From the IMG/VR virus record IMGVR_UViG_2706795958_000001, positions 16,651-80,650 of that record: a stretch of DNA of 64,000 bases; one strand, given 5' to 3'. Below are positions 1,568 to 64,000 of this stretch, piece after piece (position 1 is the stretch's first letter; each line of letters begins with the position of its first letter). Position numbers and translations under genes: made by a program. Source of the stretch: a virus (taxonomy: Duplodnaviria > Caudoviricetes). The notes under the pieces are model-generated. The model ran no database searches, was not told the origin of the DNA, and saw only the letters and a program-made list of their open reading frames with translations.

Positions 1568-4500
1568 ATGACTCAGGCTCAGCTTAATATCCTTATTAAT
1601 GTCCGCGCAAAGCAAGCGCGTGACGCTCTTAATAAACTTACTGGCGCATTGCGTCAGCTTGAACGCGCAACTCTTATTGCCGATACTGGCCTGTCTACGC
1701 TTGTTGCGAAAATGTCTAATCTGGCTGTTCCGGCTAGCATGGCAAGCGCTTCTCTGTCGAACCTTTCTAAGAGTTTGGCATCTATTGGTAGATCTAAGGC
1801 CGCGAAGACTCTCGACACTATTGGTGTTAACGCTGCACAGGCTGCCGCTTCTATGCTCGAAGCTGGCGTAGCAGCGGAGATTCTTGAAAAGCAACTTATT
1901 GGTCTAAATCTTGCGGCGAATAGTACCGCCGCTGCAATGCGTTCGCTTGCTGGCGCGAGTGCCGCAATGACCGGATTGGGTACCGCTGGTGCCGTTGCCG
2001 GTGCTGGTGCTGCCGCTGCTGCTGCTGGCGCAACAAAGATGGCTAAATCCAATAAGGATGCTACTGACTCCATTAACAAGACCAGGACTGCACAGTCTAA
2101 TCTTGGTAAGGAATTAGTTCACTCTCCCGCTTGGCGTCATTATGGTGAGCGGACTCGTTCTACATCGAAAGAGATTGACCTCTTTCGCAATAAGCTTGGC
2201 GCTACCGAGCGAAACGTTACCAACTACACCACCAAAGTTGGTCAAACGGTTCCTGTTGTAAACAATGCGTCTAGGTCAACTACGCATTGGGGCGATAATC
2301 TTTCTGCCACCGGCGCTAAGATGACCAAGTTCGGCTCACAAATGCAGTGGGCCGGTCGCCAAATGGCATTGTACTTTACTGCACCAATGGCCCTTGCAAT
2401 TGGCATGGGCGTTAAGTGGCAGCTTGATCTTGAAAAGCAGCAGACCAATCTTAAGAAGGTTTATGACGCCGGTCTTGGGGACAGTATTAATGATGCTAAT
2501 TCCAAGACTGCCGCTCAGTTTAGAATCCTCACCGATGAATTGCGTAAGCTTTCAGATCAGACCGGTACCTCGCAAGAGGAAATTACCGAAATGGCTGCCG
2601 CATGGGCGCAGGCAGGTAAGTCGGGTCAGGAACTCTTAGAGTTTACCAAGCTTACTAATCAGGCGATGATTGTCGGCGATATGACCGCCGAAAAATCTTC
2701 TGAGGGTATGCAGGCACTTGCTTTGCAGTGGGGATTCACCGGTAAGAAGTCTGCTGAGGGTATTTCTGAAATTCAGGGCGCATTGCAGAAATTCAACCTT
2801 GCGTCGAATATCACTCAGGTTTCGATGGAAGACCTGTTTGACGGCATGTCACGAACTGGTGCCCAGGCTCGTGATGCTGGATTGTCTTTCGATGAGACGA
2901 CTGCAATTCTTACTGCATTAACTCGCGTTACCGGTACCGCTGCTACGGCTGGTAATGGTTTGAAGTCCATTTCGACTAACCTTAGGGCATCTTCTAGGTC
3001 CATGCCAGAGGTTGTTGAGAAGGTTGGCCTTATCACCAATGGGCTTCTCGATATGGACTCTGCTGCGTATCAGTCTCTTTCTACTATGGATAAGTTTAGA
3101 CACATATCCAATATTAGTAAGAAGCTTAATACGCAGCAATTGGCAGAACTTAACTTTGCGCTGTTTGGCAAGTATCAGTCATCTCGTGGTGCTCAGATTA
3201 ATAAAGACCTGCAAGACTGGGCAGGTAATATTGTCAAGGTTCAAGATGCACTGGAAAGCGGAACAGGAAAGAATTCCCGTAGCTTTAAACAGTGGCAAGA
3301 AGAGCTTACGACTTATTTCGAGTCGAATCCGCAGAAGTTTAAGATTGCAAGTACTGCAATCAAAAACTCTCTTATGGATATCGGCGTTATTGCGCTGCCC
3401 TATATTCTTTCTATCCTGCAAACCATTGCCAAGCTAGCTAAGGCATTTACCAATCTGCCAGAGGGTGTACAGCAGGCCGCACTTGCTTTTGGTGTATTCG
3501 TTGCACTTGCCGCACCAATTGCGGTCCTTTTGGGTGCTACGAATGTGCTTCTTGGCTCTATGGCAAAAACCTTGGGATGGTTTGGGAAGACCTTCACCAA
3601 GGCGGGTCGTGCAAGTAAAAAGGGTGGCGCTGATATTGGCGCTGCTGGCGCTACCACGGCTAAGTCTGGCAATATTATTACTCGTACTGCCGCAAAGGTT
3701 CGTAGTGCAGTAATGGGTGGCATTGCTGCACCATTTAGGGCTGCTGCTGGCGCAGTGCGTACCGGTTCTGCGCAAACTGCCGCTGCCGCTGCTACAGGTT
3801 CGCGCGCAACGTCAGCAGCATGGGCCGCAGGCATGGGTGGAATTCCCGGCTCGACCGCTGCCGCAGGAAATGCTGCTGCTGCTGCTCATGCGCAAGCCGG
3901 TCGTCGTATGCTTAATTCGACCAGGGGTATGACCCAGGCCGAAATTATGGCTTATTACCGTCGTGGAATGCTTACCACGGCGGCGATTAAAGAAGCCGGT
4001 ATTACCCAGACTGCTGCCGTCAGAACTAATGGACAATTGCAGCTTGCCGCAGTACAGCGTAATGAAGCCGCAATGACCGCTGCTGTTGTGCGTGGTAATC
4101 AGGCGCGTGTTGCTGCCACTGCTGCCGGTGCGCGTAGTCAGGCTGGCGCTGCTGCTGCTGGCGGTGCCGCTGCCGCCGCTGGTGCTAAAAATGGGGCCAA
4201 GAAGGGTATGCGTGGTGGCGGTATTGCTGGCACTATTCTTACCGCACTACTGTTTATTCCGCCAGGAATGTTTAAGTCTTGGGGAACCAAGATTAAGAAT
4301 TTCTTTACCACTGAGGGTAAGGGATTCCAGAAAATTCTAGAGCGCCTTGGTATGAATTCCATGAAGGGATTCGCACGAGGACTCTCTAAAATTCTTGTCC
4401 GTGGTGGACCAATTGCTGCCGCGTTCGGCGTTGCTGCTGCACTCGTTGGCAATGCAATGGATGAGATTAAGGAGATTGTAGCTAAGATTCGTGGGGATAA

Positions 4501-7500
4501 GAATATCCCCATGCTGGCTAAGCCCTTTGTTGCTATTGTTCGTGGAATTGGTGCAGCGCTTAGTAAGCTTCCGCAGCTTGTTGCAGATGTATTCAACGCT
4601 GTTGTCCGTACAATTGCCAAGGCCGCTAAGGCTGTATACAACTTCTTTAGCTACATTAATCCGTTTGCACGTCACTCGCCTTCATTGGTTGAAAATGTGC
4701 AGAACGGTATGGCTGTCGTTACTGGTGAATTTGCTGACGCTAGTAAGAAGATTCAGACTGATATCAGGTCTGCCTATGGTGCCATTTCTCAATTCGGTAG
4801 AGCTACATCGAATCTTAAGGTTCGTGCTACTACCATCGAGACAGAGGATCGTAATAAAGAGCTTAATCGTGCAGACCCATCTGGTGGCGCTGCACGGTCT
4901 TATGCTGCATTGGATGCACAGGCAAAGCGCCTTGAATCCACGATGCTCAGCCTTAATGCTACGGCACTTCGTCAGCAGCGTGTAATTGATGGTCTGGAAA
5001 ATCAGGTCAAGCAAGCCGATGCTGCTATCGAGGGTATGCAAAAGGGTCTTACTCTTTTGCAGAAAGCTGCCGATGCCACCGGTAAGGCTCTCGATGCTGC
5101 TAAGGAAAAGCTAGACTATTATGCAAGCGCACCCATTAAGGGTATGCGCGCGATGAGCGATGCCATTTTTGAAAATGAAATGGCACAGAAGCGACTTCGT
5201 CTGGAAATCCTTAAGCTTGAAGATGCTGGCGAAAGCATTGATAGCCTGGAAGATAAGTTCGCCCGTTTGCAGGGTCAGATTGAAACCCTGTCCGGAACTC
5301 GCATGGAATTGCAGTCTAAGGGTGCAGGTTCAGATGTTCTTGCTACCTATGACAAGATGATTGCTGATCTTAAGTCTCAGCAAAATGCCGCGCTTGAAGG
5401 TCCGTCCACCGAGGTCGAAAAACTTAATAAGCAACTAGATGAATTGGGCCGAAAGGGTGAGCGCCTCGACCTGGAAAACTCTCTTAAGTTTGATCCGCTT
5501 ACTCGTCAGATTGAGCAACTAGTCAACAACGAGAAGGAACTGGATTTCAGCACTATTGTTGCCGGTGTTACCACATACAAGTCTGCTGTTTCTGGTCTGA
5601 CTATTGCTAATGATTTTGCTACCGCTGCCGTTGAGGCTCAGCAGTTGGCAATTGATGCTGCAACTGAATCTCGTGATGCACTTAATTCTCGCCTTGATGT
5701 TGAGAAGAATAAGCTTGACCAAGTAAAGAGCGCTTATGACGCCACTTCCACTGCTGTCGATGATACTCGCGCAGCAATGGATGAAATCACTCAGGCTGCC
5801 AGTACAGTAAATGCACGCCTTGATGAGATTGAGCAGGCGCAAAAAGAGGCTGCCGATGCAGCTAAGGAACATGCGGATGCAATTGATGCTGCCGGTGACG
5901 CTCTCGGTGATATGGCTGAAATTGATACCGAGCTTCCTGAGGTTGATAGCGCTGCGCTAGAAAACAGTCTGGGTAACCTCTTCCCTGATGTTTCTAAGAA
6001 GCTGGAAGAGTTTGGAACCAAGATAAAGAATTGGTTCAAGGGTCTTCCGCAGAAGATTGTTGACGAACTTAAAGAGCTTGGCCCTAAGATCGGCACATTC
6101 CTTATGGGATTGCCTGGTGAAATTGCGGGCGCTCTTGCATTCCTTCTCGGTTATATTATCGGTCTTATTGGCCGGGGTATTGTCGAGAGTACCAAGCTTA
6201 TGCTTGGTGGACTCAAGCTGTTCTTCTACGATATTCCCAAGAATATCGGCGAGTGGCTTGCGGGAATTGACTGGGAATCGGTTCGTACTAATGTAGTTAA
6301 TTTCATTAAGGGTCTATTTACCGGTGAAAGCTGGGCTAAGGCTGGAGAATGGCTGCTTGACGTCGGTGGAGATATTATCGGTGGCCTGTTCAAGGGTATT
6401 GGTAATGTTCTGCTTAATGTCACAACCTGGATCAAAGAGAATATCGTTGATAGATTTATCAACGGTATTAAAGAGGGATTTGAAATTCAGTCCCCATCCA
6501 AGGTTATGGCACGCATTGGCGTTGACATTATTCTTGGCCTTCTTAATGGTATCGTTGAAAAAGCGCAAGACCTCTGGAATTGGATCACCGGCCTGGCCGG
6601 AACGGTCCGGGAGAAGCTTGGCAATGCGCGTGATTTCTTGTGGCAAAAGGGCAAGGATATCATTCAGGGCCTTAAAGACGCCGCCGTTGAAAAGTGGAAC
6701 GAATTCCTGGACTGGGTTAAGGGTCTACCAGGTCAGATTAAGGATAAGCTTGGTAATCTTAAGAATACCCTCTTTGAGGCAGGAAAGGATCTCATTCGAG
6801 GTCTGATTGATGGTGCTGGCGATCTTCTTAAGAATATCGCACAGATGTTTGCGGATAAAATTCCCAATAAGATAATCCGCGAAGGCTTTAAGCGTGCAAT
6901 GGGTATCGCTTCTCCGTCTAAGGTTTTCACCGAATTTGGTACAAATATTGGTGAAGGTCTCGTTATTGGCATGGAGAATCAGCTTGCTGATATCACTTCT
7001 GCGAGCAACGCATTGTCTGACGCGGCGTCTGCTGGAATAGATAATGCGGCCCCCCTATCCATCCCCGCTGTACAGGCTGCACCGGCTGCCCTTCCGGCTG
7101 CTCCGGCTGCTCCTGAGGCTGGCGCGGCCCCGGCTGCCGCTGGCCCTGATCCGGCTGCGCTCGCTGCTCAGGTGACCGCCGCCACTCAGGCCGCAACGCT
7201 GGTGTGGCAGGGTTATTACGCGAATCTGACTGTAATGCAGACTGAGCATAATGCTTTGGAATTGGTTGCTCAGAATACGCATGACCTTGCAAAGATGGCC
7301 GCATTGGTTGCGTACAATACTGCGGAATTGACTACGGTCACTTCTCAGTACACTGCTCTACTGACTGCACAGCAGACGTACTACACTACATTTACTGGAC
7401 TTTCTACCACGTTCCGTACTACTGAGCTTAATGCTCAGATTGCTTGGTACGCAAGTCAGATTACAGAGTTTAACAAGTTCTCTGCTAACTACCAGAGTGC

Positions 7501-10315
7501 TCTTACAACTCTGCTCAATGCTAGCAAGGACTTGTTCGATACCTTCCGTATTGACGTTACCGACATCTTCCAGAATCTTGCAACTAGTATGCAGGATACG
7601 GTTAACGGTCCTATTACGGACGTATTCACCTCTCTTGCTGGAATGCTGGACGAGGCTGTTACCAACTTCCAGACTGCTGTTACAAATATCCAATCTGCAT
7701 GGCTTGGAATTCAGGAGGGTACTGCTGCCCCGGTTCGCTTCACAATTGATAGGGTCTACAACAATGGCCTTATGGGTGTGTGGAATAATGTTGCTGAACT
7801 TATCGGCGCGAACAAGATGCAGCAATATCCAGTTAACTTTGCAACTGGTGGTCCAGTCAAGGGTCCAGGTACGGAAACTAGCGATTCTATTCCGGCCAGA
7901 TTGTCGCGCAATGAGTACGTACTTAGTGCCGACGCGGTTAGGCGCGCCGGTGGAGTAACTAACCTTAACCGGTTTAACTTCGGAAAGTCTACGCCGCAAG
8001 GCATGTTCGGAATTGGTGGCAATTACAAGGTTCAGAGTACCAATGGTACTGTTATGAAGCTTGCAACCGGCGGTCCCACCGACCCCGGTTCTCCGACGTG
8101 GAAAGCATTCCAGCGCGGTCACCTGTTTGCTAAGCGTATTTCTCCCGGACCATACATTCTCGGCGGTTCTTCGGGTGGATCACGTAACGGCGGTACTGAC
8201 TGTTCGGGATTCCAGTCCGAGGTTGCCGATGTAATTATGGGCGGTCCTGGTGGTTCTCGTAAGTGGGCTACCGGTTCATTCCCTGGTGGCGGTGGAGCGC
8301 AGGGTAATATCGTCCGAATTGGCAATCAGATTTGGGCCAAGGGTCTCGGTGCCGGTCATTCGATCGGTATTAGCGTTCCTCACGCTGCCGGTACATTGAG
8401 CGGCATTCCCGGACTGCCGAACGTCAATATCGAGTCCGGTGGTGGGACCGGTGGCGGTGCTACTTATGGTGGACCTGCTACTGGTGCAAACGATTCGCAA
8501 TTCCCGACTCGTTATCACTTGGCAATTACAGATGGAATGTTCGTTGCTGCAACTGCCGGTGGCGGCGCTTCCATGATGGAAATTCTTGGCTCGATGGTGG
8601 AGCCTGGTCTTAAGAAGATGATTGAGGATGCCAAGGCATTCCAAGGAAAGGGCCACGCTGGAACCGTACCACTGAAAACTGCTGAGGCTTGGGATAAGGG
8701 TACTCGCAAGAAGATTGAAGACGAAGCCAAGAAGCTGGACGCAATGGGTCCGGGTCTTGGTGGTGGTGACATTTCAGGCGTTGAACGTTGGCGTCCGATG
8801 GTTATCGCTGCGCTTAAGAAGCAGGGATTCGCTGGGACTAAGCGCGAGCAGGATGCAATGCTCGGTCAGATTTGGGATGAATCTAAGGGTGATCCCAATG
8901 CAGTGAATAACTGGGATATCAACGCGCAGAACGGTACTCCGTCCCGGGGTCTCTTGCAGACGATTCCGTCCACGTTCGAGACTTGGCGAGACCCGTCGAT
9001 TCCTGGCGGCATTACTGATCCGTGGGCGAATATGAATGCCGCGCTTCGGTATTACCGTGACAACTACGGCAACGATCTTACTACTCGTTGGGGTCGTGGT
9101 AAGGGTGGATATGATAAGGGCGGATGGTTGCCGCCTACGCCTGACGGTTTCAGCACCTATTACAATCACACTGGCAAGCCGGAAGCTGTTCTGGAAAACA
9201 GTGATTGGAAGGCTATTTACACGGCTGCAAGTAAGCCCGCAATCACTCCCGAGATTATCTCTACCGGATTCATCTCGGCCATGAAGACTCTGTTCGGTGC
9301 TAATACCGATCAAAAGATTCAGGATGCCACCGCTATTGCTACTGAGGTTGCACTAGAGGGTGAGAATAAGAAGTGGAACCCGCTGATTATTGGTGCAGCA
9401 GAAGAGACGGCAAAAGCCGCTGCTACAACGACTTCGGCGGTTACCGCTTCTGGCTCCAAGGTTGCCGGTGCGGTTGATGCTAATTCGCTCATCTCTGCCG
9501 ACCAGACGAAGATTCTTACGTCAATGCTCGGAGTGTTGCGCGCGGCTCAAAGTGCCGTTCCGACAGTGAAGTACACGCCCGGTAGTACCGATAAGGAAAC
9601 CGGTAAGGTTACTCCTGAGAATTTCGAGATTTCCAATTTCACGTTCAGCATGTTTGCTCCGCTGATCGAAGCTATGGGTGGTCTGATCGAAAATCTCCCC
9701 GATGCTGAGCCTACCTACGTTGACTGGGCTGGAACTAATCGACCGGTTACCGATCAGATGCGTCAGGAAAAGCGCCTGAATGACATGGCTAATGCCAGCA
9801 AGGGCATGTACATGGCGTTCAAAACCGTTGCGCCGTCTGTACTTAAGCATACTGCCAAGATCGGTTCTGCAATTGAAACACTGATCGCTCAGGATGGTGC
9901 AGCATGGACCGCTGCAATTGCTGGTATTGCTGCCGGTAACCCGATGGCTATTGCCGCTGCTGTTGCATTGGCATTCAAGGCTGTATTCACCTTGCTGCCT
10001 TTGATTCTGGAAGCCATTGTGGAAATCGTTCCGGCAATCTTCAAGGCTATCAAGATGTTCATCACCAGGTTCTCCCCGGACTCGGTGTACAGCTACGACT
10101 CATATGATGCCGCTAACCAAGCTGTGAATGATAACATCGACGCTATCCGAAAGGGTGCCTCTGGCCCGAACTTCAAGGTGCCAGAAGAGACAATCCAGAA
10201 CAACACGAATCAGACGACCGTACTCAATATTTATGGCGATATCTCACTCCCGAACGTTACCAATACTTCGGGTGCTCAGAATCTCGCTAATAATCTTGAA
10301 TCGCTTGCAGGGTAG
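1568..10315 (+). CDS. Tape measure protein with C-terminal NlpC/P60-like peptidase and lytic transglycosylase (SLT-like) domains
   Basis: 2915 aa, Ala/Gly-rich helical; TP901-like core; repeated SPS(K/L)V motifs; FATGG..GPGT.TSDSIPA.LS.NEYV motif; YILGG...DCSG...H; ES.GDPNAVNNWD.N..G.PS.GLLQ.I..TF. Confidence 0.97.
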   Translation: MTQAQLNILINVRAKQARDALNKLTGALRQLERATLIADTGLSTLVAKMSNLAVPASMASASLSNLSKSLASIGRSKAAKTLDTIGVNAAQAAASMLEAGVAAEILEKQLIGLNLAANSTAAAMRSLAGASAAMTGLGTAGAVAGAGAAAAAAGATKMAKSNKDATDSINKTRTAQSNLGKELVHSPAWRHYGERTRSTSKEIDLFRNKLGATERNVTNYTTKVGQTVPVVNNASRSTTHWGDNLSATGAKMTKFGSQMQWAGRQMALYFTAPMALAIGMGVKWQLDLEKQQTNLKKVYDAGLGDSINDANSKTAAQFRILTDELRKLSDQTGTSQEEITEMAAAWAQAGKSGQELLEFTKLTNQAMIVGDMTAEKSSEGMQALALQWGFTGKKSAEGISEIQGALQKFNLASNITQVSMEDLFDGMSRTGAQARDAGLSFDETTAILTALTRVTGTAATAGNGLKSISTNLRASSRSMPEVVEKVGLITNGLLDMDSAAYQSLSTMDKFRHISNISKKLNTQQLAELNFALFGKYQSSRGAQINKDLQDWAGNIVKVQDALESGTGKNSRSFKQWQEELTTYFESNPQKFKIASTAIKNSLMDIGVIALPYILSILQTIAKLAKAFTNLPEGVQQAALAFGVFVALAAPIAVLLGATNVLLGSMAKTLGWFGKTFTKAGRASKKGGADIGAAGATTAKSGNIITRTAAKVRSAVMGGIAAPFRAAAGAVRTGSAQTAAAAATGSRATSAAWAAGMGGIPGSTAAAGNAAAAAHAQAGRRMLNSTRGMTQAEIMAYYRRGMLTTAAIKEAGITQTAAVRTNGQLQLAAVQRNEAAMTAAVVRGNQARVAATAAGARSQAGAAAAGGAAAAAGAKNGAKKGMRGGGIAGTILTALLFIPPGMFKSWGTKIKNFFTTEGKGFQKILERLGMNSMKGFARGLSKILVRGGPIAAAFGVAAALVGNAMDEIKEIVAKIRGDKNIPMLAKPFVAIVRGIGAALSKLPQLVADVFNAVVRTIAKAAKAVYNFFSYINPFARHSPSLVENVQNGMAVVTGEFADASKKIQTDIRSAYGAISQFGRATSNLKVRATTIETEDRNKELNRADPSGGAARSYAALDAQAKRLESTMLSLNATALRQQRVIDGLENQVKQADAAIEGMQKGLTLLQKAADATGKALDAAKEKLDYYASAPIKGMRAMSDAIFENEMAQKRLRLEILKLEDAGESIDSLEDKFARLQGQIETLSGTRMELQSKGAGSDVLATYDKMIADLKSQQNAALEGPSTEVEKLNKQLDELGRKGERLDLENSLKFDPLTRQIEQLVNNEKELDFSTIVAGVTTYKSAVSGLTIANDFATAAVEAQQLAIDAATESRDALNSRLDVEKNKLDQVKSAYDATSTAVDDTRAAMDEITQAASTVNARLDEIEQAQKEAADAAKEHADAIDAAGDALGDMAEIDTELPEVDSAALENSLGNLFPDVSKKLEEFGTKIKNWFKGLPQKIVDELKELGPKIGTFLMGLPGEIAGALAFLLGYIIGLIGRGIVESTKLMLGGLKLFFYDIPKNIGEWLAGIDWESVRTNVVNFIKGLFTGESWAKAGEWLLDVGGDIIGGLFKGIGNVLLNVTTWIKENIVDRFINGIKEGFEIQSPSKVMARIGVDIILGLLNGIVEKAQDLWNWITGLAGTVREKLGNARDFLWQKGKDIIQGLKDAAVEKWNEFLDWVKGLPGQIKDKLGNLKNTLFEAGKDLIRGLIDGAGDLLKNIAQMFADKIPNKIIREGFKRAMGIASPSKVFTEFGTNIGEGLVIGMENQLADITSASNALSDAASAGIDNAAPLSIPAVQAAPAALPAAPAAPEAGAAPAAAGPDPAALAAQVTAATQAATLVWQGYYANLTVMQTEHNALELVAQNTHDLAKMAALVAYNTAELTTVTSQYTALLTAQQTYYTTFTGLSTTFRTTELNAQIAWYASQITEFNKFSANYQSALTTLLNASKDLFDTFRIDVTDIFQNLATSMQDTVNGPITDVFTSLAGMLDEAVTNFQTAVTNIQSAWLGIQEGTAAPVRFTIDRVYNNGLMGVWNNVAELIGANKMQQYPVNFATGGPVKGPGTETSDSIPARLSRNEYVLSADAVRRAGGVTNLNRFNFGKSTPQGMFGIGGNYKVQSTNGTVMKLATGGPTDPGSPTWKAFQRGHLFAKRISPGPYILGGSSGGSRNGGTDCSGFQSEVADVIMGGPGGSRKWATGSFPGGGGAQGNIVRIGNQIWAKGLGAGHSIGISVPHAAGTLSGIPGLPNVNIESGGGTGGGATYGGPATGANDSQFPTRYHLAITDGMFVAATAGGGASMMEILGSMVEPGLKKMIEDAKAFQGKGHAGTVPLKTAEAWDKGTRKKIEDEAKKLDAMGPGLGGGDISGVERWRPMVIAALKKQGFAGTKREQDAMLGQIWDESKGDPNAVNNWDINAQNGTPSRGLLQTIPSTFETWRDPSIPGGITDPWANMNAALRYYRDNYGNDLTTRWGRGKGGYDKGGWLPPTPDGFSTYYNHTGKPEAVLENSDWKAIYTAASKPAITPEIISTGFISAMKTLFGANTDQKIQDATAIATEVALEGENKKWNPLIIGAAEETAKAAATTTSAVTASGSKVAGAVDANSLISADQTKILTSMLGVLRAAQSAVPTVKYTPGSTDKETGKVTPENFEISNFTFSMFAPLIEAMGGLIENLPDAEPTYVDWAGTNRPVTDQMRQEKRLNDMANASKGMYMAFKTVAPSVLKHTAKIGSAIETLIAQDGAAWTAAIAGIAAGNPMAIAAAVALAFKAVFTLLPLILEAIVEIVPAIFKAIKMFITRFSPDSVYSYDSYDAANQAVNDNIDAIRKGASGPNFKVPEETIQNNTNQTTVLNIYGDISLPNVTNTSGAQNLANNLESLAG

Positions 10316-39616: not shown

Positions 39617-40378
39617 TCACAAATTCACCGCCTCAACTAGTGCAGAATCATCCACACCCAAATACAGCTGAGTATGTGTAATCTGAGAATGCCCCAAAAG
39701 GATTTGGGTCAACCTAATGTCCTTGTGTTTGTTGTACACATGAGTTGCAAATGTAGCACGCAAGTCATGGCTCGATACCTGCTCACCGATGACATTGGTA
39801 ACACCTGCACGAGTGAATACCTTGGTAATTCCGCGCCGGGCAGATGCATTGCAAATCGGAACAAAACGCTCAGTCTCGATGCATTCCAGTTCCATTGCAA
39901 GCTCATCCGATATAGGAATACGGCGGAATTTACCACCCTTACCACGTACCATGAGCCTACCTAGAACAATATCACTTCGGGTTGCTGCAATCGTCTCGGC
40001 TACTCGCAGACCAGCGAGCGCCCCCAGAGCCACAGCCGCCCGATGAGCGCCCATCGGTGTGCTGGTCAGCACCGCGCGCACCGTCTCGATTCCTCCGGCC
40101 ACCGGGTGGGGCTGCGGCATAGGCAGTGGTGGTGCAGAATAATCGTTAATTTCCGAATTGATGATACCAGCGAATTTATTGTATGAACGGATAGCTGCAA
40201 GCATCATCTTGATATTAGATGCAGATGCGCCATACTCGCGCTCATCGGTAATCCATTCAGATTGTTCGTACCCGGAACGCTGCCATTCACTAACCTTAGT
40301 GACATACATGCGGATGGTATTACGTGACTTGCCTGTGCGGTTAAGCCATGCTTCAAACTCTTCAATCTGATTGGTCAT
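39617..40378 (-). CDS. XerC/D-like tyrosine recombinase (253 aa, no arm-binding domain)
   Basis: AGLRVAE (R), RGKGGK (K), HDLR (H..R), LLGH, TQLY (Y); RBS ACAGGAGG before ATG 40378. Confidence 0.92.
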   Translation of the reverse strand: MTNQIEEFEAWLNRTGKSRNTIRMYVTKVSEWQRSGYEQSEWITDEREYGASASNIKMMLAAIRSYNKFAGIINSEINDYSAPPLPMPQPHPVAGGIETVRAVLTSTPMGAHRAAVALGALAGLRVAETIAATRSDIVLGRLMVRGKGGKFRRIPISDELAMELECIETERFVPICNASARRGITKVFTRAGVTNVIGEQVSSHDLRATFATHVYNKHKDIRLTQILLGHSQITHTQLYLGVDDSALVEAVNL

Positions 40379-49554: not shown

Positions 49555-49739
49555 GGGACGTATCCGATATCCGTTCCGTAGAGAGCGGTGGTATTACCAA
49601 ATTCATCGCTACATACAAACAGACCATTAAGATCGGCAATACGCTTTTGGTAACGAGAGTCATGGCGGGACGTGTCAATCTTAGAAATTACTTTCCATTG
49701 CTTGCCGTCAAATTCTACAGTTTTTCCGATCATGTCCAT
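49551..49739 (-). CDS. Hypothetical protein
   Basis: Coupled ORF. Confidence 0.5.
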   Translation of the reverse strand: MDMIGKTVEFDGKQWKVISKIDTSRHDSRYQKRIADLNGLFVCSDEFGNTTALYGTDIGYVP

Positions 49740-57643: not shown

Positions 57644-58133
57644 AGTTCACCTATCTTTCCATTTTAAATGATTGTGTTAATGATCGGTGTCGGTCAACGT
57701 GAATTGATTCAGTGTGACCCGTTAACCGACAGGAATGCAAGCGCGCGATAACTGAGCGCTATTAGTTCTCTCGATTGTTTTTCGTCTCCTGTCTGCCGTG
57801 TGTCCGCGCGTAGGTTCTACGTGACCAGGGTAAACGTCGATAGAGCTGCCTAGCGTCGATTCTGAGAGACTTTCTGTGCCTAGCCATGTCCTAACCCTAG
57901 GTAGGTACCGTTAGCGCCTGTGTGCTGATCTGAGCGCTTGCCTTGTGCGTCTCTAGCGCTCACGCTCACCTGTGACCAGCACTTGTCTGTGTCGGCATGG
58001 GTGCCCTGTGTGCCCTGTGCCCTGTGCGAGAACACAGGGCAGGAATACTCAGGCGAGAAACGTCACTGTGACGTTATCTATTCGTTATCTAGATAATAAG
58101 CGCAGCTAACTATCGGATTAAATAAAAAACGGG

Positions 58134-58195
58134 CACAAACCACACAAGGCGTTATTACCTAGAAAATTAGGTAATAACGCCTTGTGTGGTTTGTG
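58134..58195. repeat. Perfect 28-bp inverted repeat, 6-nt loop
   Basis: CACAAACCACACAAGGCGTTATTACCTA-GAAAAT-TAGGTAATAACGCCTTGTGTGGTTTGTG. Confidence 0.95.
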
Positions 58196-58216
58196 GTGAG
58201 TGATCCGGTCTAGGTT

Positions 58217-59089: not shown

Positions 59090-59185
59090 TTGTGATTGTT
59101 CTCCTGTGTGTTGTGTGAGTGAGGTTTATATCCCTCACTGATTACACAGTGATTAGCTCACTGTGTAATCAGAGTCGATATAACC

Positions 59186-59401
59186 CTATGGTTTCCACCA
59201 ACTATTACCGTCGGTAATCCAACCATCTGAGAAGTAGGCAAGCCCATCCGAGTACGCGCGCAACGGTGCGCCACAAGGTGAGCCATAAGGCGATTCATCT
59301 TCCAATAGCTCACCTGTGCCACTTAGACGCGTCGGTGCGTCTAAGTGGCAATGGTTGGTTGGTACGCCTAGCAGAATTGTTAGTGCAACAAGAATATCCA
59401 T
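59186..59401 (-). CDS. Hypothetical early protein
   Basis: Coupled ORF. Confidence 0.55.
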   Translation of the reverse strand: MDILVALTILLGVPTNHCHLDAPTRLSGTGELLEDESPYGSPCGAPLRAYSDGLAYFSDGWITDGNSWWKP

Positions 59402-59942: not shown

Positions 59943-60219
59943 GACTTTTTATTCTCCTGACTTGGATACTTCAAATGAAACAACTACGTCGGTAGCTACG
60001 GATATCAATAGTTCTGTAATTACCTGACCAATTCTTTCGACCGAATAAGTACCTGACATAGGGTCTACGTACTTACCGTTACCGTCGTCGCAATACACTG
60101 TGAGCGCATACATGTGTGTTTCTCCTGTCTGTGTTGCCCTGTGTGGACATGGCAGACTCTAGGGTAGGTCTGTCTACCCTAGAGCCGCTAAACCCTCACA
60201 GAATCGAACTGAGCGCTTC

Positions 60220-61281
60220 TCAGGCGATAGCTACCTGTACCATCTTCCACAATTCTTCATCCAAAGCGTCAAACTTGCCCTTAATGCGTGCTTCAGAATT
60301 GCGCTCGTAACGCGATGCTTCCCCACGAATTTCGGACGCATGATGAGCGAACGTGTTTCCTGTCTGGACAAGTCCAAGGGCAGTACCGGACCAATCTGCA
60401 CACATTGCATCATGACGGTACATATCAAGGAATTTGTCGCGCTTGTTTTCCGTGCGCGTGTATCCTTTGCCTTTTTCATCCGGCAACGGTGCCCAAGCAT
60501 CGAGAAACGCGAACAATTGCGCGTCGTCAATCTCAATATCGCTCAGCATGTGAATCTGGTCTGTGTACAGTTCGATACCGTTTTCAACCAATCCCAATGC
60601 TTCGCGTGCCTGGTCAATTTTTGCGTTGGAATGCTTAGTGTGCTTGATCTTAAAGAAACGTCCATCCCTTTTCATCTCACCAAGCGCTACCGCGCGAGTA
60701 TTGTCACAGACAGTTTGAGTAATGGTTAGTCCGTGGGTAGTGGCGCATGAACCATCGAGAGCGGTAGTGGCAAGGTAATTGCTACGGAATGCCATACCGG
60801 TTTTAGCGTCGTGAATTGTCTCAGGAATGGAGAACTCTACCCAAGCAACGGCACCGCCCTTGAGAAGTCCGGCCGACGATGGTTGCAGAGTTTCACCGAT
60901 AACGTTGCTTGCAAGTCCAATGAGCCAATCGCGGTAATCATGCACTGCGTAAGAATCACTGTGCAGACCAATTGTGCGGTAATTGTCCGATCGAACAATT
61001 GCCATTTTTCCCGGTACTAGAACGTTAACTACAGGATTACCGTATGAGTCAATGCCGGTAGCGTGTTCTGCATTATCGGTCGGGACTTCTGCATGAATGG
61101 GGACCTGCAACGGTTCCCAATTAAACAAGCGACGATTGATATCGGCGACCGGGATAGCCCCGGAGTAATGGTTAGACTCTGCACCCTGATATGCGGCGTC
61201 ATAATGCCATGCGTGACCACGCTGGTCGGTGAATCCGACCAGGACGTTCGTGTTCAATGTTTCAATGCTCTCAGAGGACAT
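60220..61281 (-). CDS. DUF932/DUF945 (TIGR03299-like) phage/plasmid protein
   Basis: SAG.LKGG.VAW, YL.TT.LDGS, R.VC.NT-like TVCDNT, KHT, GTA.GL.Q. Confidence 0.85.
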   Translation of the reverse strand: MSSESIETLNTNVLVGFTDQRGHAWHYDAAYQGAESNHYSGAIPVADINRRLFNWEPLQVPIHAEVPTDNAEHATGIDSYGNPVVNVLVPGKMAIVRSDNYRTIGLHSDSYAVHDYRDWLIGLASNVIGETLQPSSAGLLKGGAVAWVEFSIPETIHDAKTGMAFRSNYLATTALDGSCATTHGLTITQTVCDNTRAVALGEMKRDGRFFKIKHTKHSNAKIDQAREALGLVENGIELYTDQIHMLSDIEIDDAQLFAFLDAWAPLPDEKGKGYTRTENKRDKFLDMYRHDAMCADWSGTALGLVQTGNTFAHHASEIRGEASRYERNSEARIKGKFDALDEELWKMVQVAIA

Positions 61282-61315: not shown

Positions 61316-61368
61316 TGAATCCATCGCTAGCTATTGGGTTGGTTATCCCAATAGCTAGGGTTGATTCA
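61316..61368 (-). repeat. Conserved hairpin element copy 1
   Basis: TGAATCAACCCTAG-stem-CTAGCGATGGATTCA. Confidence 0.85.
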
Positions 61369-61449
61369 GTCCGGTAATGCGTACTCGCACCAAATGAACA
61401 ATGGTGCGAGTATGACCAGTGCGAGAACTAACGCGTATTGCCAACTCAT
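61366..61449 (-). CDS. 27-aa hydrophobic peptide
   Basis: MSWQYALVLALVILAPLFIWCEYALPD; ATGA overlap; its stop is the TGA of the hairpin element. Confidence 0.5.
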   Translation of the reverse strand: MSWQYALVLALVILAPLFIWCEYALPD

Positions 61450-61751
61450 GACGCATTCCATGCCGGTCGTCGATGCTTGCCATTGTCGGAATAAGGTTCA
61501 TCGCCTAACAATTCACCGTTAGTTCCGATACTGTCTAGCATCCCCTCGAATTCAACGATATTGGGAGTCAGTTCTCTGTCATTGCCCATAATCGCGAAAC
61601 TATGTCGTGGTCGCTTTTCGTAATTGTCTGCCCTACGTCCACGCTCAGGATCAATACCCAAACAACGGTTAAGCTTTTCGTGATAGCCCATTGTGCGCCC
61701 TGTGTTGGTCTGTGAGCGCTTGACGAGGTTGACTTGGTACTTGGTAGCCAT
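61446..61751 (-). CDS. Hypothetical early protein
   Basis: CAGACAGGAGAA RBS. Confidence 0.65.
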   Translation of the reverse strand: MATKYQVNLVKRSQTNTGRTMGYHEKLNRCLGIDPERGRRADNYEKRPRHSFAIMGNDRELTPNIVEFEGMLDSIGTNGELLGDEPYSDNGKHRRPAWNAS

Positions 61752-61809
61752 GATGGTTTGTTCTCCTGTCTGCGACGCTGTGAGCGTCTTCTGTGTGAGT
61801 GATAGACCT

Positions 61810-61864
61810 TGAATCCATCGCTAGGCGCATGTTTCACGTGAAACATGCGCCTAAGGTTGATTCA
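61810..61864 (-). repeat. Conserved hairpin element copy 2, containing a parS site
   Basis: TGAATCAACCTTAG-GCGCATGTTTCACGTGAAACATGCGC-CTAGCGATGGATTCA. Confidence 0.85.
61830..61845. promoter_or_regulatory. parS: parS (ParB-binding site), consensus match
   Basis: TGTTTCACGTGAAACA. Confidence 0.85.
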
Positions 61865-62161
61865 CGGTTCGGCGCGCAAAATTCCTTCTACCGCTCCGCG
61901 TGCCTTGTATCCGCTAATGGTGTGAGTCATGAAACTCACGTGAGCCGCACGGACTGTGCCACCGACGTACTCGACTTTCATGGTGTCTGTGTCGCCCTGT
62001 GAATCCGTGCGACTGTAAACCATCGTGACCAGAGGGAAGTCTGCACGCTTAAATGTGAATTCCTCACACTCAATGATCCAACTGTTTTCGTCGGCCAGAC
62101 GATTGATACCGCGCACGACAGGATGGAAGGAAATACCGTCAAGTTCCTGTGTAAATGCCAT
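61862..62161 (-). CDS. Hypothetical early protein
   Basis: CACAGGAGAA RBS; stop inside hairpin element. Confidence 0.65.
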   Translation of the reverse strand: MAFTQELDGISFHPVVRGINRLADENSWIIECEEFTFKRADFPLVTMVYSRTDSQGDTDTMKVEYVGGTVRAAHVSFMTHTISGYKARGAVEGILRAEP

Positions 62162-62193
62162 TGTCTTTTCTCCTGTGTTGTGTGAATTCCGAT

Positions 62194-62250
62194 TGAATCC
62201 ATCGCTAGGTCACAGGGTTAAGGGATAACCCTGTGCCTAAGGTTGATTCA
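62194..62250 (-). repeat. Conserved hairpin element copy 3
   Basis: TGAATCAACCTTAG-stem-CTAGCGATGGATTCA. Confidence 0.85.
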
Positions 62251-62463
62251 GTCTGTGAGTACCAGTCGAACATGTGAGTATCGAATTGAATCGGTATCGA
62301 CGATTACTCCATTGGCTAGTACCAAGTCGATACGCAGTGAATCATTGTTCGGGTACTTAATGTCCACTACCTTATCGGCGCGCTTATTCCTGTGATCAAA
62401 AACGATTACGTCCCCACGACGAATGCGATTGTTCGGGACCATTACCGTATTGAGCTTTCCCAT
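62248..62463 (-). CDS. Hypothetical early protein (first gene of the leftward early operon)
   Basis: CACACAGGAGAA RBS before ATG 62463. Confidence 0.65.
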   Translation of the reverse strand: MGKLNTVMVPNNRIRRGDVIVFDHRNKRADKVVDIKYPNNDSLRIDLVLANGVIVDTDSIRYSHVRLVLTD

Positions 62464-62728
62464 TGTTTCTTCTCCTGTGTGGGTTGAATGGTTCGCAGGT
62501 AATGCGGATATCGGTTGCCTTGGTACGGCACGCCTACCCGCATTACCTAGGTACATTCAAACCTGTGACAGACCATTAAACGGATGATGCATCATGTGCA
62601 GCGCATACGCTGGACTGTCCTCGCCGGATCACTCTGTTGACTTTTCAAGGTTCACGCGTGAGTCGGGACTTGCGCGCACATGGCTCGCGCCGCGTGCCCT
62701 GCCCTACTCACTAACAACTCATATCACC

Positions 62729-62757
62729 TTTATACACACCGACTGACATGCGTGCAA
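62729..62757 (-). promoter_or_regulatory. Candidate early promoter
   Basis: TTGCAC-17 nt-TATAAA with TG extension; -7 base is non-consensus. Confidence 0.4.
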
Positions 62758-62794: not shown

Positions 62795-62810
62795 TGTTTC
62801 ACGTGAAACA
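62795..62810. promoter_or_regulatory. parS: parS (ParB-binding site), consensus match
   Basis: TGTTTCACGTGAAACA. Confidence 0.85.
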
Positions 62811-63179: not shown

Positions 63180-64000
63180 AGGGTGCCCTATCTACGTAGG
63201 TATGTGCATATACGTAGGGCACTGTGTATACACACGTACCTACGTATGCGCAGTGCCCTACGTATGGTTATGTATCAAGCATTGTATTAGGTGAACAGTG
63301 AATGGGTTATGTATCAAGCATTGTATTAAGTGTGTAATGATTAGGCTTTGTATTAACCATTGTATTAAGTGAATGTATTATGCACGTAATTAAACACTGT
63401 GATTATTAGTGTCCTACCAGTGTGGTCAGCGACTGCCCTTAAAGTGGTGGGTATTAAAGGGAGTGGCTTTAAATAGGTGGGTATTAAAAGGGGACGCATT
63501 AAAGGGCATGATTAAAGGAAAGGCTTAAGTAATGTGTGAGCATGAAACGTCAGCGAGAAGATCACAAGGGTGATAATTCGGTTCGGTGAATTGGGATTAA
63601 CTGAAAGTAATCGGTATTGCTATGTTTGTTCGGTTAATTGGGATTAATTGAAGTGTCACGTTCTTTTGATTAATGGGTAATTGTTGAATCGGTGTATTAA
63701 GGGGATTACGAAATATGGGCAAAGAAATAGGGGATATGAAAACGGGGGATTACTCGAATTTCTCGCATTTACTTTTGTTTTGAATTCGCGCGAAATTCGA
63801 TCAGCATTCCGTGAATTCTTGCCGAATTCATGGGAATGGTGGGTAATGGCATTTCTCGAATTCCATAAATGATACCGGGATATCGAATTCTGGCCCATTT
63901 ATCTATTCCGTCGACCATGCTCGATAACGTCGGTTATCGCGCAGGGCATTCGATATGGGATTAATTTTTTGGAAAGGGGAGAGGTCGAAAAGCGGCGCTC
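63180..64000. repeat. Non-coding repeat-rich region, probably near the genome end
   Basis: 28-bp direct repeat x2 (63266, 63305), ATTAAAG-like runs, five GAATTC in 109 bp. Confidence 0.7.

Follow-up and report, generated by a model that had tools for sequence, protein, structure and literature searches.

Six two-storey hairpins punctuate what we infer to be a single leftward early operon of ∼4.6 kb, running from ∼62.7 kb to 58.13 kb of the 64,000-nt stretch of phage DNA analyzed here (the window). We put at roughly 50% the probability that these elements serve as processing and 3′-stabilizing sites for an RNase III-type enzyme of the host, a reading modeled on the early transcripts of other phages. 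Four of the hairpins (E1–E4) are homologous in sequence, and two more (E5 and H6) have the same geometry. All six occupy gaps between ORFs of one strand, ahead of the only canonical terminator, and all are retained in a related phage, where one of them has kept its pairing through replacement of much of its sequence. The initial annotation had proposed processing or stabilizing sites; strand, position and geometry fit that proposal, and the mechanism is one that we infer. Hairpins of this type are known from phages T7 and SP82. The unexpected part is a perfect parS in the tip of E2.

The window comprises the last 64 kb of an 80,650-bp genome that has a G+C content of 47% and ends with a 249-bp direct terminal repeat. 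Gordonia phage Orchid, a member of cluster CX, also has 47% G+C and a 249-bp terminal repeat (PMC5559632). The phage studied here matches an Orchid-type Gordonia phage of that cluster, and we refer to it as Orchid. Gordonia phage Gibbles, ∼95% identical to Orchid across the last 4 kb, was the sole close relative compared, and conservation of the elements is judged below on these two lineages. The Gibbles annotation describes a siphovirus with leftward genes starting from the right end; it includes a 253-aa tyrosine recombinase and lists no phage RNA polymerase, ribonuclease, ParA or ParB.

The early genes and hairpins described below, and the promoter proposed for them, are on the minus strand. 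A candidate early promoter, TTGCAC-17-TATAAA, was read by eye at 62729–62757. It differs from its Gibbles counterpart at two positions, both within the spacer, and is missing from the listing of a consensus promoter scan. The first early gene (62248–62463, 71 aa) and the second (61862–62161, 99 aa) encode orphan proteins, and the third (61446–61751, 101 aa) carries internal insertions and deletions relative to Gibbles. The stop codon of this third gene overlaps, as ATGA, the start of a 27-aa hydrophobic ORF (61366–61449) that ends in the TGA of E3. This ORF is in frame in Gibbles despite ∼27% nucleotide divergence, is unannotated there, and probably encodes a small membrane protein. Downstream of E3 is a DUF932 gene (60220–61281, 353 aa) whose product has no relative in IMG/VR. 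The genes flanking the elements are orphans; the one extra contig that matched is Gibbles-like.

An intrinsic terminator at 58122–58196 (z-score –14) would close the operon. Its hairpin part (58196–58133) has a 28-bp perfect stem, which is followed by a T-run, and it is the only canonical terminator on the minus strand in this stretch. Comparison with Gibbles shows two compensatory base-pair changes in the stem, at 58178/58151 and 58177/58152. None of E1–E5 or H6 has such a T-run, the operon-end hairpin being the only one that does, and a U-tract is reported to be needed for termination by mycobacterial RNA polymerase (PMC3993855). On this count, E1–E5 and H6 do not qualify as intrinsic terminators of the kind found at the operon end.

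Three of the hairpins, at 61316–61368 (E3), 61810–61864 (E2) and 62194–62250 (E1), had been reported in the initial annotation, and their positions and boxes are exactly as described there. They share the minus-strand consensus TGAATC-AACC-YTAG-(stem-loop)-CTAG-CGATG-GATTCA, where Y stands for C in E3 and for T in the other two. The two base boxes, of 14 and 15 nt, are identical in all three, and each is present in the window as three exact copies and nowhere else. When folded as RNA, the three elements show a lower stem of 6 bp, an internal loop of 4/5 nt and an upper stem of 12–16 bp, interrupted in E1 by one bulged A. Fold z-scores range from –7.3 to –7.7 (–7.67, –7.29 and –7.60 for E1, E2 and E3), and none of 200 shuffled sequences folded as well. 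The earlier observation that the first TGA is the stop codon of the upstream gene holds for all three, the ORFs concerned being 62463–62248 (71 aa) for E1, 62161–61862 (99 aa) for E2 and 61449–61366 (the 27-aa ORF) for E3. So does the description of a strong ribosome-binding site for the next gene, in the form of GGAGA and a CA-rich leader behind the elements. The tips had been called unrelated and covarying. Those of E1–E3 are indeed unrelated and fully paired, but that of E2 is parS rather than an anonymous palindrome.

The count of three needs to be extended. A fourth homologous two-storey hairpin, E4 (62485–62559; z-score –5.85), belongs to the first early gene, in whose 5′ leader it lies 22 nt ahead of the Shine–Dalgarno sequence. 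It reads TGAATG-TACC-TAGG..CCTG-CGAAC-CATTCA and folds into a lower stem of 7 bp (TGAATG/CATTCA plus one U-A pair), a 4/5 loop and an upper stem of 15 bp with a branched tip. The order of parts and the loop core, ACC..CGA, are common to E4 and E1–E3, and the sixth pair of the outer stem is C-G in E1–E3 and G-C in E4, a compensatory change. The bulge in E1 and the shorter stem of E4 shift the alignment register among the elements. Two further hairpins are unrelated to E1–E4 in sequence and alike in geometry. E5 (60138–60202; z-score –5.22), between the DUF932 gene and the next gene, has a lower stem of 6+3 bp, an internal loop of 4/4 and an upper stem of 15 bp with one bulge. H6 (59123–59185; z-score –7.05) directly follows a TAG stop codon at 59188–59186 and has a lower stem of ∼9 bp, an internal loop of 4/5 and an upper stem of 15 bp. 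Across the six, then, the lower stem measures 6–9 bp and the upper stem 12–16 bp, and the internal loop between them has 4 nt on one side and 4–5 nt on the other, being asymmetric (4/5) in all but E5. A scan of the whole minus strand for this geometry recovered five of the six hairpins and, over the remaining 76 kb, ∼8 weaker matches, so that the geometry is ∼12-fold enriched in the early operon; E4 is missed because of its branched tip. Another hairpin, with 14 perfect bp, was seen within a 71-aa gene at 59317–59350. Of its changes relative to Gibbles, one is compensatory, two give wobble pairs and two are disruptive, and a conserved structure is not established in this case.

A common CA-rich leader with a GGAGA Shine–Dalgarno sequence follows E4, E1, E3 and H6 and directly precedes the start codons at 62463, 62161, 61281 and 59090. 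Elsewhere in the genome, only one weaker match to this leader was found, at 49739. Mycobacteriophages of cluster K carry start-associated sequences, which are short, conserved and situated directly before some start codons, and the Orchid leader is reminiscent of these. Both the leader sequence and the phage cluster differ from the cluster K case, however, and in Orchid the hairpins are upstream of the leader and separate from it. Upstream of the early operon, between it and the terminal repeat, are nested large palindromes (with arms that contain TACGTAGGGCACTG) and AT-rich direct repeats, at 63193–63265 and 63280–63560. This may be a regulatory or origin region; in Gibbles, a 79-bp insertion at its edge corresponds to one extra repeat unit.

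Conservation in relatives, one of the expectations raised earlier, is evident in Gibbles, where all six hairpins are retained and the homologous set consists of the same four, with no others. Five of the six can be described as identical: E2 and E4 are so, E5 and H6 are unchanged, and E1 differs at one loop base. The exception is E3, which falls within a mosaic patch where 34% of the aligned positions outside the boxes differ between the two phages. In its tip, 14 of 24 positions have been replaced and pairing is kept. In its base boxes only 1 of 29 positions has changed (binomial P about 1e-4), and that change, at Y, converts a C-G pair to U.G. Because the E3 tip of Gibbles is similar to that of E1, gene conversion between element copies is likely, and such conversion may help to keep the base boxes identical. 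The upper stems of the elements all differ yet all are paired. With five of the six hairpins identical in the two lineages, this covariation is mostly among paralogues, where gene conversion or a palindromic origin could mimic selection.

Are these elements read as RNA? The initial annotation argued that variation of the Y:G pair favors an RNA structure on the transcribed strand. Consistent with this, Y varies as C in E3 and T in E1/E2, and all five of the wobble pairs found are G-U or U-G on the minus strand and would be A-C mismatches on the plus strand. Minimum free energy does not separate the strands, however. E1–E3 fold as well or slightly better on the plus strand because the internal loop can close there, and folding energy is therefore no proof of the RNA strand. 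The case for RNA rests on context, namely the transcribed strand, the intercistronic site, the stop codon at the foot and the ribosome-binding site behind. As for double-stranded DNA, element length ranges from 51 to 75 nt and the distance from box to box varies accordingly. Only the folded form would therefore bring the boxes together; a dimer on duplex DNA cannot read both, which rules out an operator of that kind. We also searched for known RNA motifs. An Rfam scan of 57–64 kb at a permissive E-value returned only chance microRNA-like matches, and K-turns, loop E and known self-cleaving ribozymes were rejected on the basis of loop sequence and Rfam.

By analogy with T7, the elements would be cis-acting RNA structures on a polycistronic early transcript made by host RNA polymerase. 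Each hairpin would form a helix that is quasi-continuous over at least about two turns, broken by the 4 / 4–5-nt internal loop. The predicted folds amount to 22–29 steps in all, with the loop counted as 4 steps, and thus to the helix of about two turns expected of an RNase III substrate; substrates of the E. coli enzyme are usually two helical turns long (PMC1540722). The host double-strand-specific RNase III would recognize the hairpin by its shape and make a single cut in the internal loop, its mode of action at the early sites of T7. Internal loops limit RNase III to a single cut, and the 3′ hairpin left by the enzyme protects against 3′–5′ exonucleases (PMC1540722). In Orchid, cleavage would provide the upstream cistron with a protective 3′ hairpin, and the downstream cistron would be released with a strong Shine–Dalgarno sequence and a CA-rich leader that is short and unstructured. 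For the first gene, the long 5′ leader would be trimmed at E4, much as happens at R0.3 in T7. The tip would be free to vary, and in E2 it carries a DNA-level site, the host parS. Since neither a phage RNA polymerase nor a ribonuclease is found in the Gibbles annotation, a host enzyme is the simplest candidate agent.

For comparison, we took the five intergenic regions of the early genes from the T7 reference record and folded them with the same tool as was used for the elements. R0.3 folds into a lower stem of 5 bp, a 4/5 loop and an upper stem of 9 bp; the corresponding values for R0.5 are 8 bp, 4/5 and 10 bp. A likeness of the Orchid loop to that of the T7 RNase III site R1.1 had been remarked on before; here it is seen with R0.3 and R0.5. 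The folded T7 sites have a common loop region and differing tips, and one of them is ahead of the first gene. In both phages, a series of intercistronic hairpins (R0.3, R0.5, R1, R1.1 and R1.3 in T7) occupies the first operon transcribed by the host, close to the end of a genome that carries a short direct terminal repeat. In T7 as in Orchid, one of the sites lies ahead of the first gene, and the sites stack an upper stem on a 4/5 loop and a lower stem, the loop region being conserved and the tips variable. A stop codon inside or beside the lower stem is also common to the two: the UGA of T7 gene 0.4 is within the lower stem of R0.5, and that of gene 0.7 is 1–2 nt before R1. There are differences as well. 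Upper stems are longer in Orchid (12–16 versus 9–10 bp) and lower stems somewhat shorter, the Orchid host is an actinobacterium, and cleavage in Orchid is a prediction only. Because the conserved T7 box is unrelated in sequence to the Orchid boxes and no Rfam family corresponds to the Orchid elements, we regard the resemblance as analogy, not homology.

A Gram-positive precedent also exists. The early mRNA of phage SP82 contains conserved hairpins that are cut by the RNase III of its Gram-positive host (PMC4838370); we liken the Orchid elements to these by description, and the two hosts belong to different phyla. Our literature search found no description of host RNase III processing of early phage mRNA in any actinobacteriophage, a group in which post-transcriptional control is largely unexplored. 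The Orchid operon offers six compact, bounded candidate sites that could define the substrate rules of an actinobacterial RNase III, and the hairpins could serve as insulator or stabilizer parts for expression in Gordonia and Mycobacterium.

One feature goes against processing by RNase III. Box identity of 100% is more than a purely shape-reading enzyme needs, and concerted evolution or a sequence-specific binder may lie behind it. In the latter case, the elements could be RNA structures read by a sequence-specific RNA-binding protein instead of RNase III, either an orphan early phage protein or another host factor. Docked on the invariant lower stem and loop (the ACC / CGA core), such a protein would govern stability, antitermination, or how the neighboring cistrons are translated. 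The boxes are identical in E1–E3, the ACC..CGA core recurs in E4, and 28 of the 29 box positions are kept in a patch that is 34% divergent, beyond the needs of a nuclease that reads shape; the operon also encodes several orphan proteins without a family match. Yet no RNA-binding family is recognizable among the early proteins, E5 and H6 have the geometry but not the sequence, which argues for recognition of shape, and the identity of the boxes could stem from gene conversion, as suggested by the E1-like tip of E3 in Gibbles. On balance, we consider a dedicated binder rather unlikely. With four sites that share sequence and two that share shape only, the operon has a built-in test of shape versus sequence.

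Another view is that the hairpins are passive: exonuclease barriers, translational insulators or partial terminators without dedicated recognition, with boxes that are alike only through duplication and gene conversion. Hairpins straight after stop codons are common mRNA stabilizers, the tip of E3 in Gibbles has the look of a copy converted from E1, and the example of E5 and H6 shows that a particular sequence can be dispensed with. What makes this view doubtful is the internal loop, which recurs with 4 / 4–5 nt at the same height in all six hairpins, two of them of unrelated sequence. A barrier has no need of such a loop, which weakens the helix. Moreover, the tips have fully diverged and the boxes have not, and the U-tract that termination would call for (PMC3993855) is missing.

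Judged by its sequence, the tip of E2 certainly carries a DNA-level site. Positions 61830–61845 match exactly the 16-bp chromosomal parS of Mycobacteriales, the site at which ParB nucleates in the host clade (PMC2346475, PMC3527565). A second perfect parS palindrome is present at 62795–62810, ∼40 bp upstream of the candidate promoter, and its flanks, GCGCA/TGCGC, are similar to those of the E2 tip. These are the only two copies in the 80.65-kb genome, which has no further site with 1–3 mismatches, and both are kept in Gibbles. The distant relatives Trogglehumper, Camerico, Jumbo and GMA3 have no parS. For the other tips (E1, E3, E4, E5 and H6), a search for further copies gave chance 10-mers only. 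Unlike chromosomal parS, these copies are phage-borne, the Gibbles annotation contains neither ParA nor ParB, and one Orchid copy forms part of an RNA-type hairpin, at its tip; binding by host ParB is putative. Since any palindrome will do as the tip of an RNA hairpin, a DNA-level signal is conveniently accommodated there. Taken further, the elements could be dual-layer modules, with a base that acts in RNA as a processing or docking site and a tip that acts as a slot for DNA palindromes. The two parS copies would load host ParB clamps on the early region and tie the centromere machinery (through positioning, silencing or ParB titration) to early-gene expression. We consider this extended scheme improbable. 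A parS in a hairpin tip raises the separate question whether a phage without partition genes recruits host ParB.

The last reading to be weighed places the function of the elements in DNA. They would be sites for recombination of a folded single strand or cruciform (attC-like, or Xer-type as in CTX phage), for replication priming, or for a mobile palindromic repeat, and would mark module boundaries among the early genes. The attC sites of integrons are imperfect palindromes in which an unpaired spacer separates conserved outer boxes from an inner stem that is topped by a variable structure, and the left box often holds the stop codon of the cassette. The Orchid elements resemble them in all these respects, down to the stop codon in the left box. 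Also in favor of this reading are the tyrosine recombinase of the phage, the DNA-level site in the E2 tip, and the fact that E3 is where the one sequence mosaic between Orchid and Gibbles in this stretch comes to an end. The consensus of the attC R box is RYYYAAC/GTTRRRY, however, to which the outer boxes TGAATC/GATTCA are unrelated, and instead of forming an array behind a Pc promoter, the elements belong to a transcribed early operon that has ribosome-binding sites. The recombinase (39617–40378) is Xer-like. It matched the integron-integrase model TIGR02249 over the catalytic C-terminus only, with 51 bits against a cut-off of 265, and its best matches, to Xer models, are also below their cut-offs. 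A lower stem of 6 bp is too short for an 11-bp Xer arm, and all wobble pairs favor the transcribed strand. Gene order at the four homologous elements is the same in Orchid and Gibbles, with no cassette gained or lost. The attC-like alternative of the initial annotation, and the cassette-like gain or loss that went with it, find no support in these results from two lineages, and we consider any DNA-level function of the elements as a whole very unlikely.

Searches for further copies are in line with this. The 15-mer box gave 38 single matches in IMG/VR, about the number estimated for chance. A gapped 21-base pattern of the boxes gave no match in IMG/VR, 28 in metagenomes and 10 in GTDB genomes, and those 28 and 10 matches were traced to one conserved Acidobacteria-type sequence (in two Acidobacteria MAGs) and to chance. 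One match, at 3975–4023 of an uncultured Clostridiales MAG, is a GC-rich terminator hairpin that follows the stop codon of a 658-aa gene and is flanked by the same two boxes. These are opposite in orientation to the gene, and we dismissed it as a chance match. The element has no copies elsewhere in the genome, in the four distant relatives or in the three public collections, which speaks against a mobile repeat.

The four distant relatives, Trogglehumper, Camerico, Jumbo and GMA3, lack the element family and have other intergenic hairpins or leaders. In Rhodococcus phage Trogglehumper, early genes at 3501–10011 share a different conserved leader, CACTCACCGAATC..GGGAGACA, ahead of at least eight start codons, and this leader resembles the start-associated sequences of cluster K mycobacteriophages. 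In Gordonia phage Jumbo, the region 3956–5075 contains three near-identical terminator hairpins with T-runs, each within an outer stem of CACAGA type, and thus constitutes a repeated two-storey terminator module.
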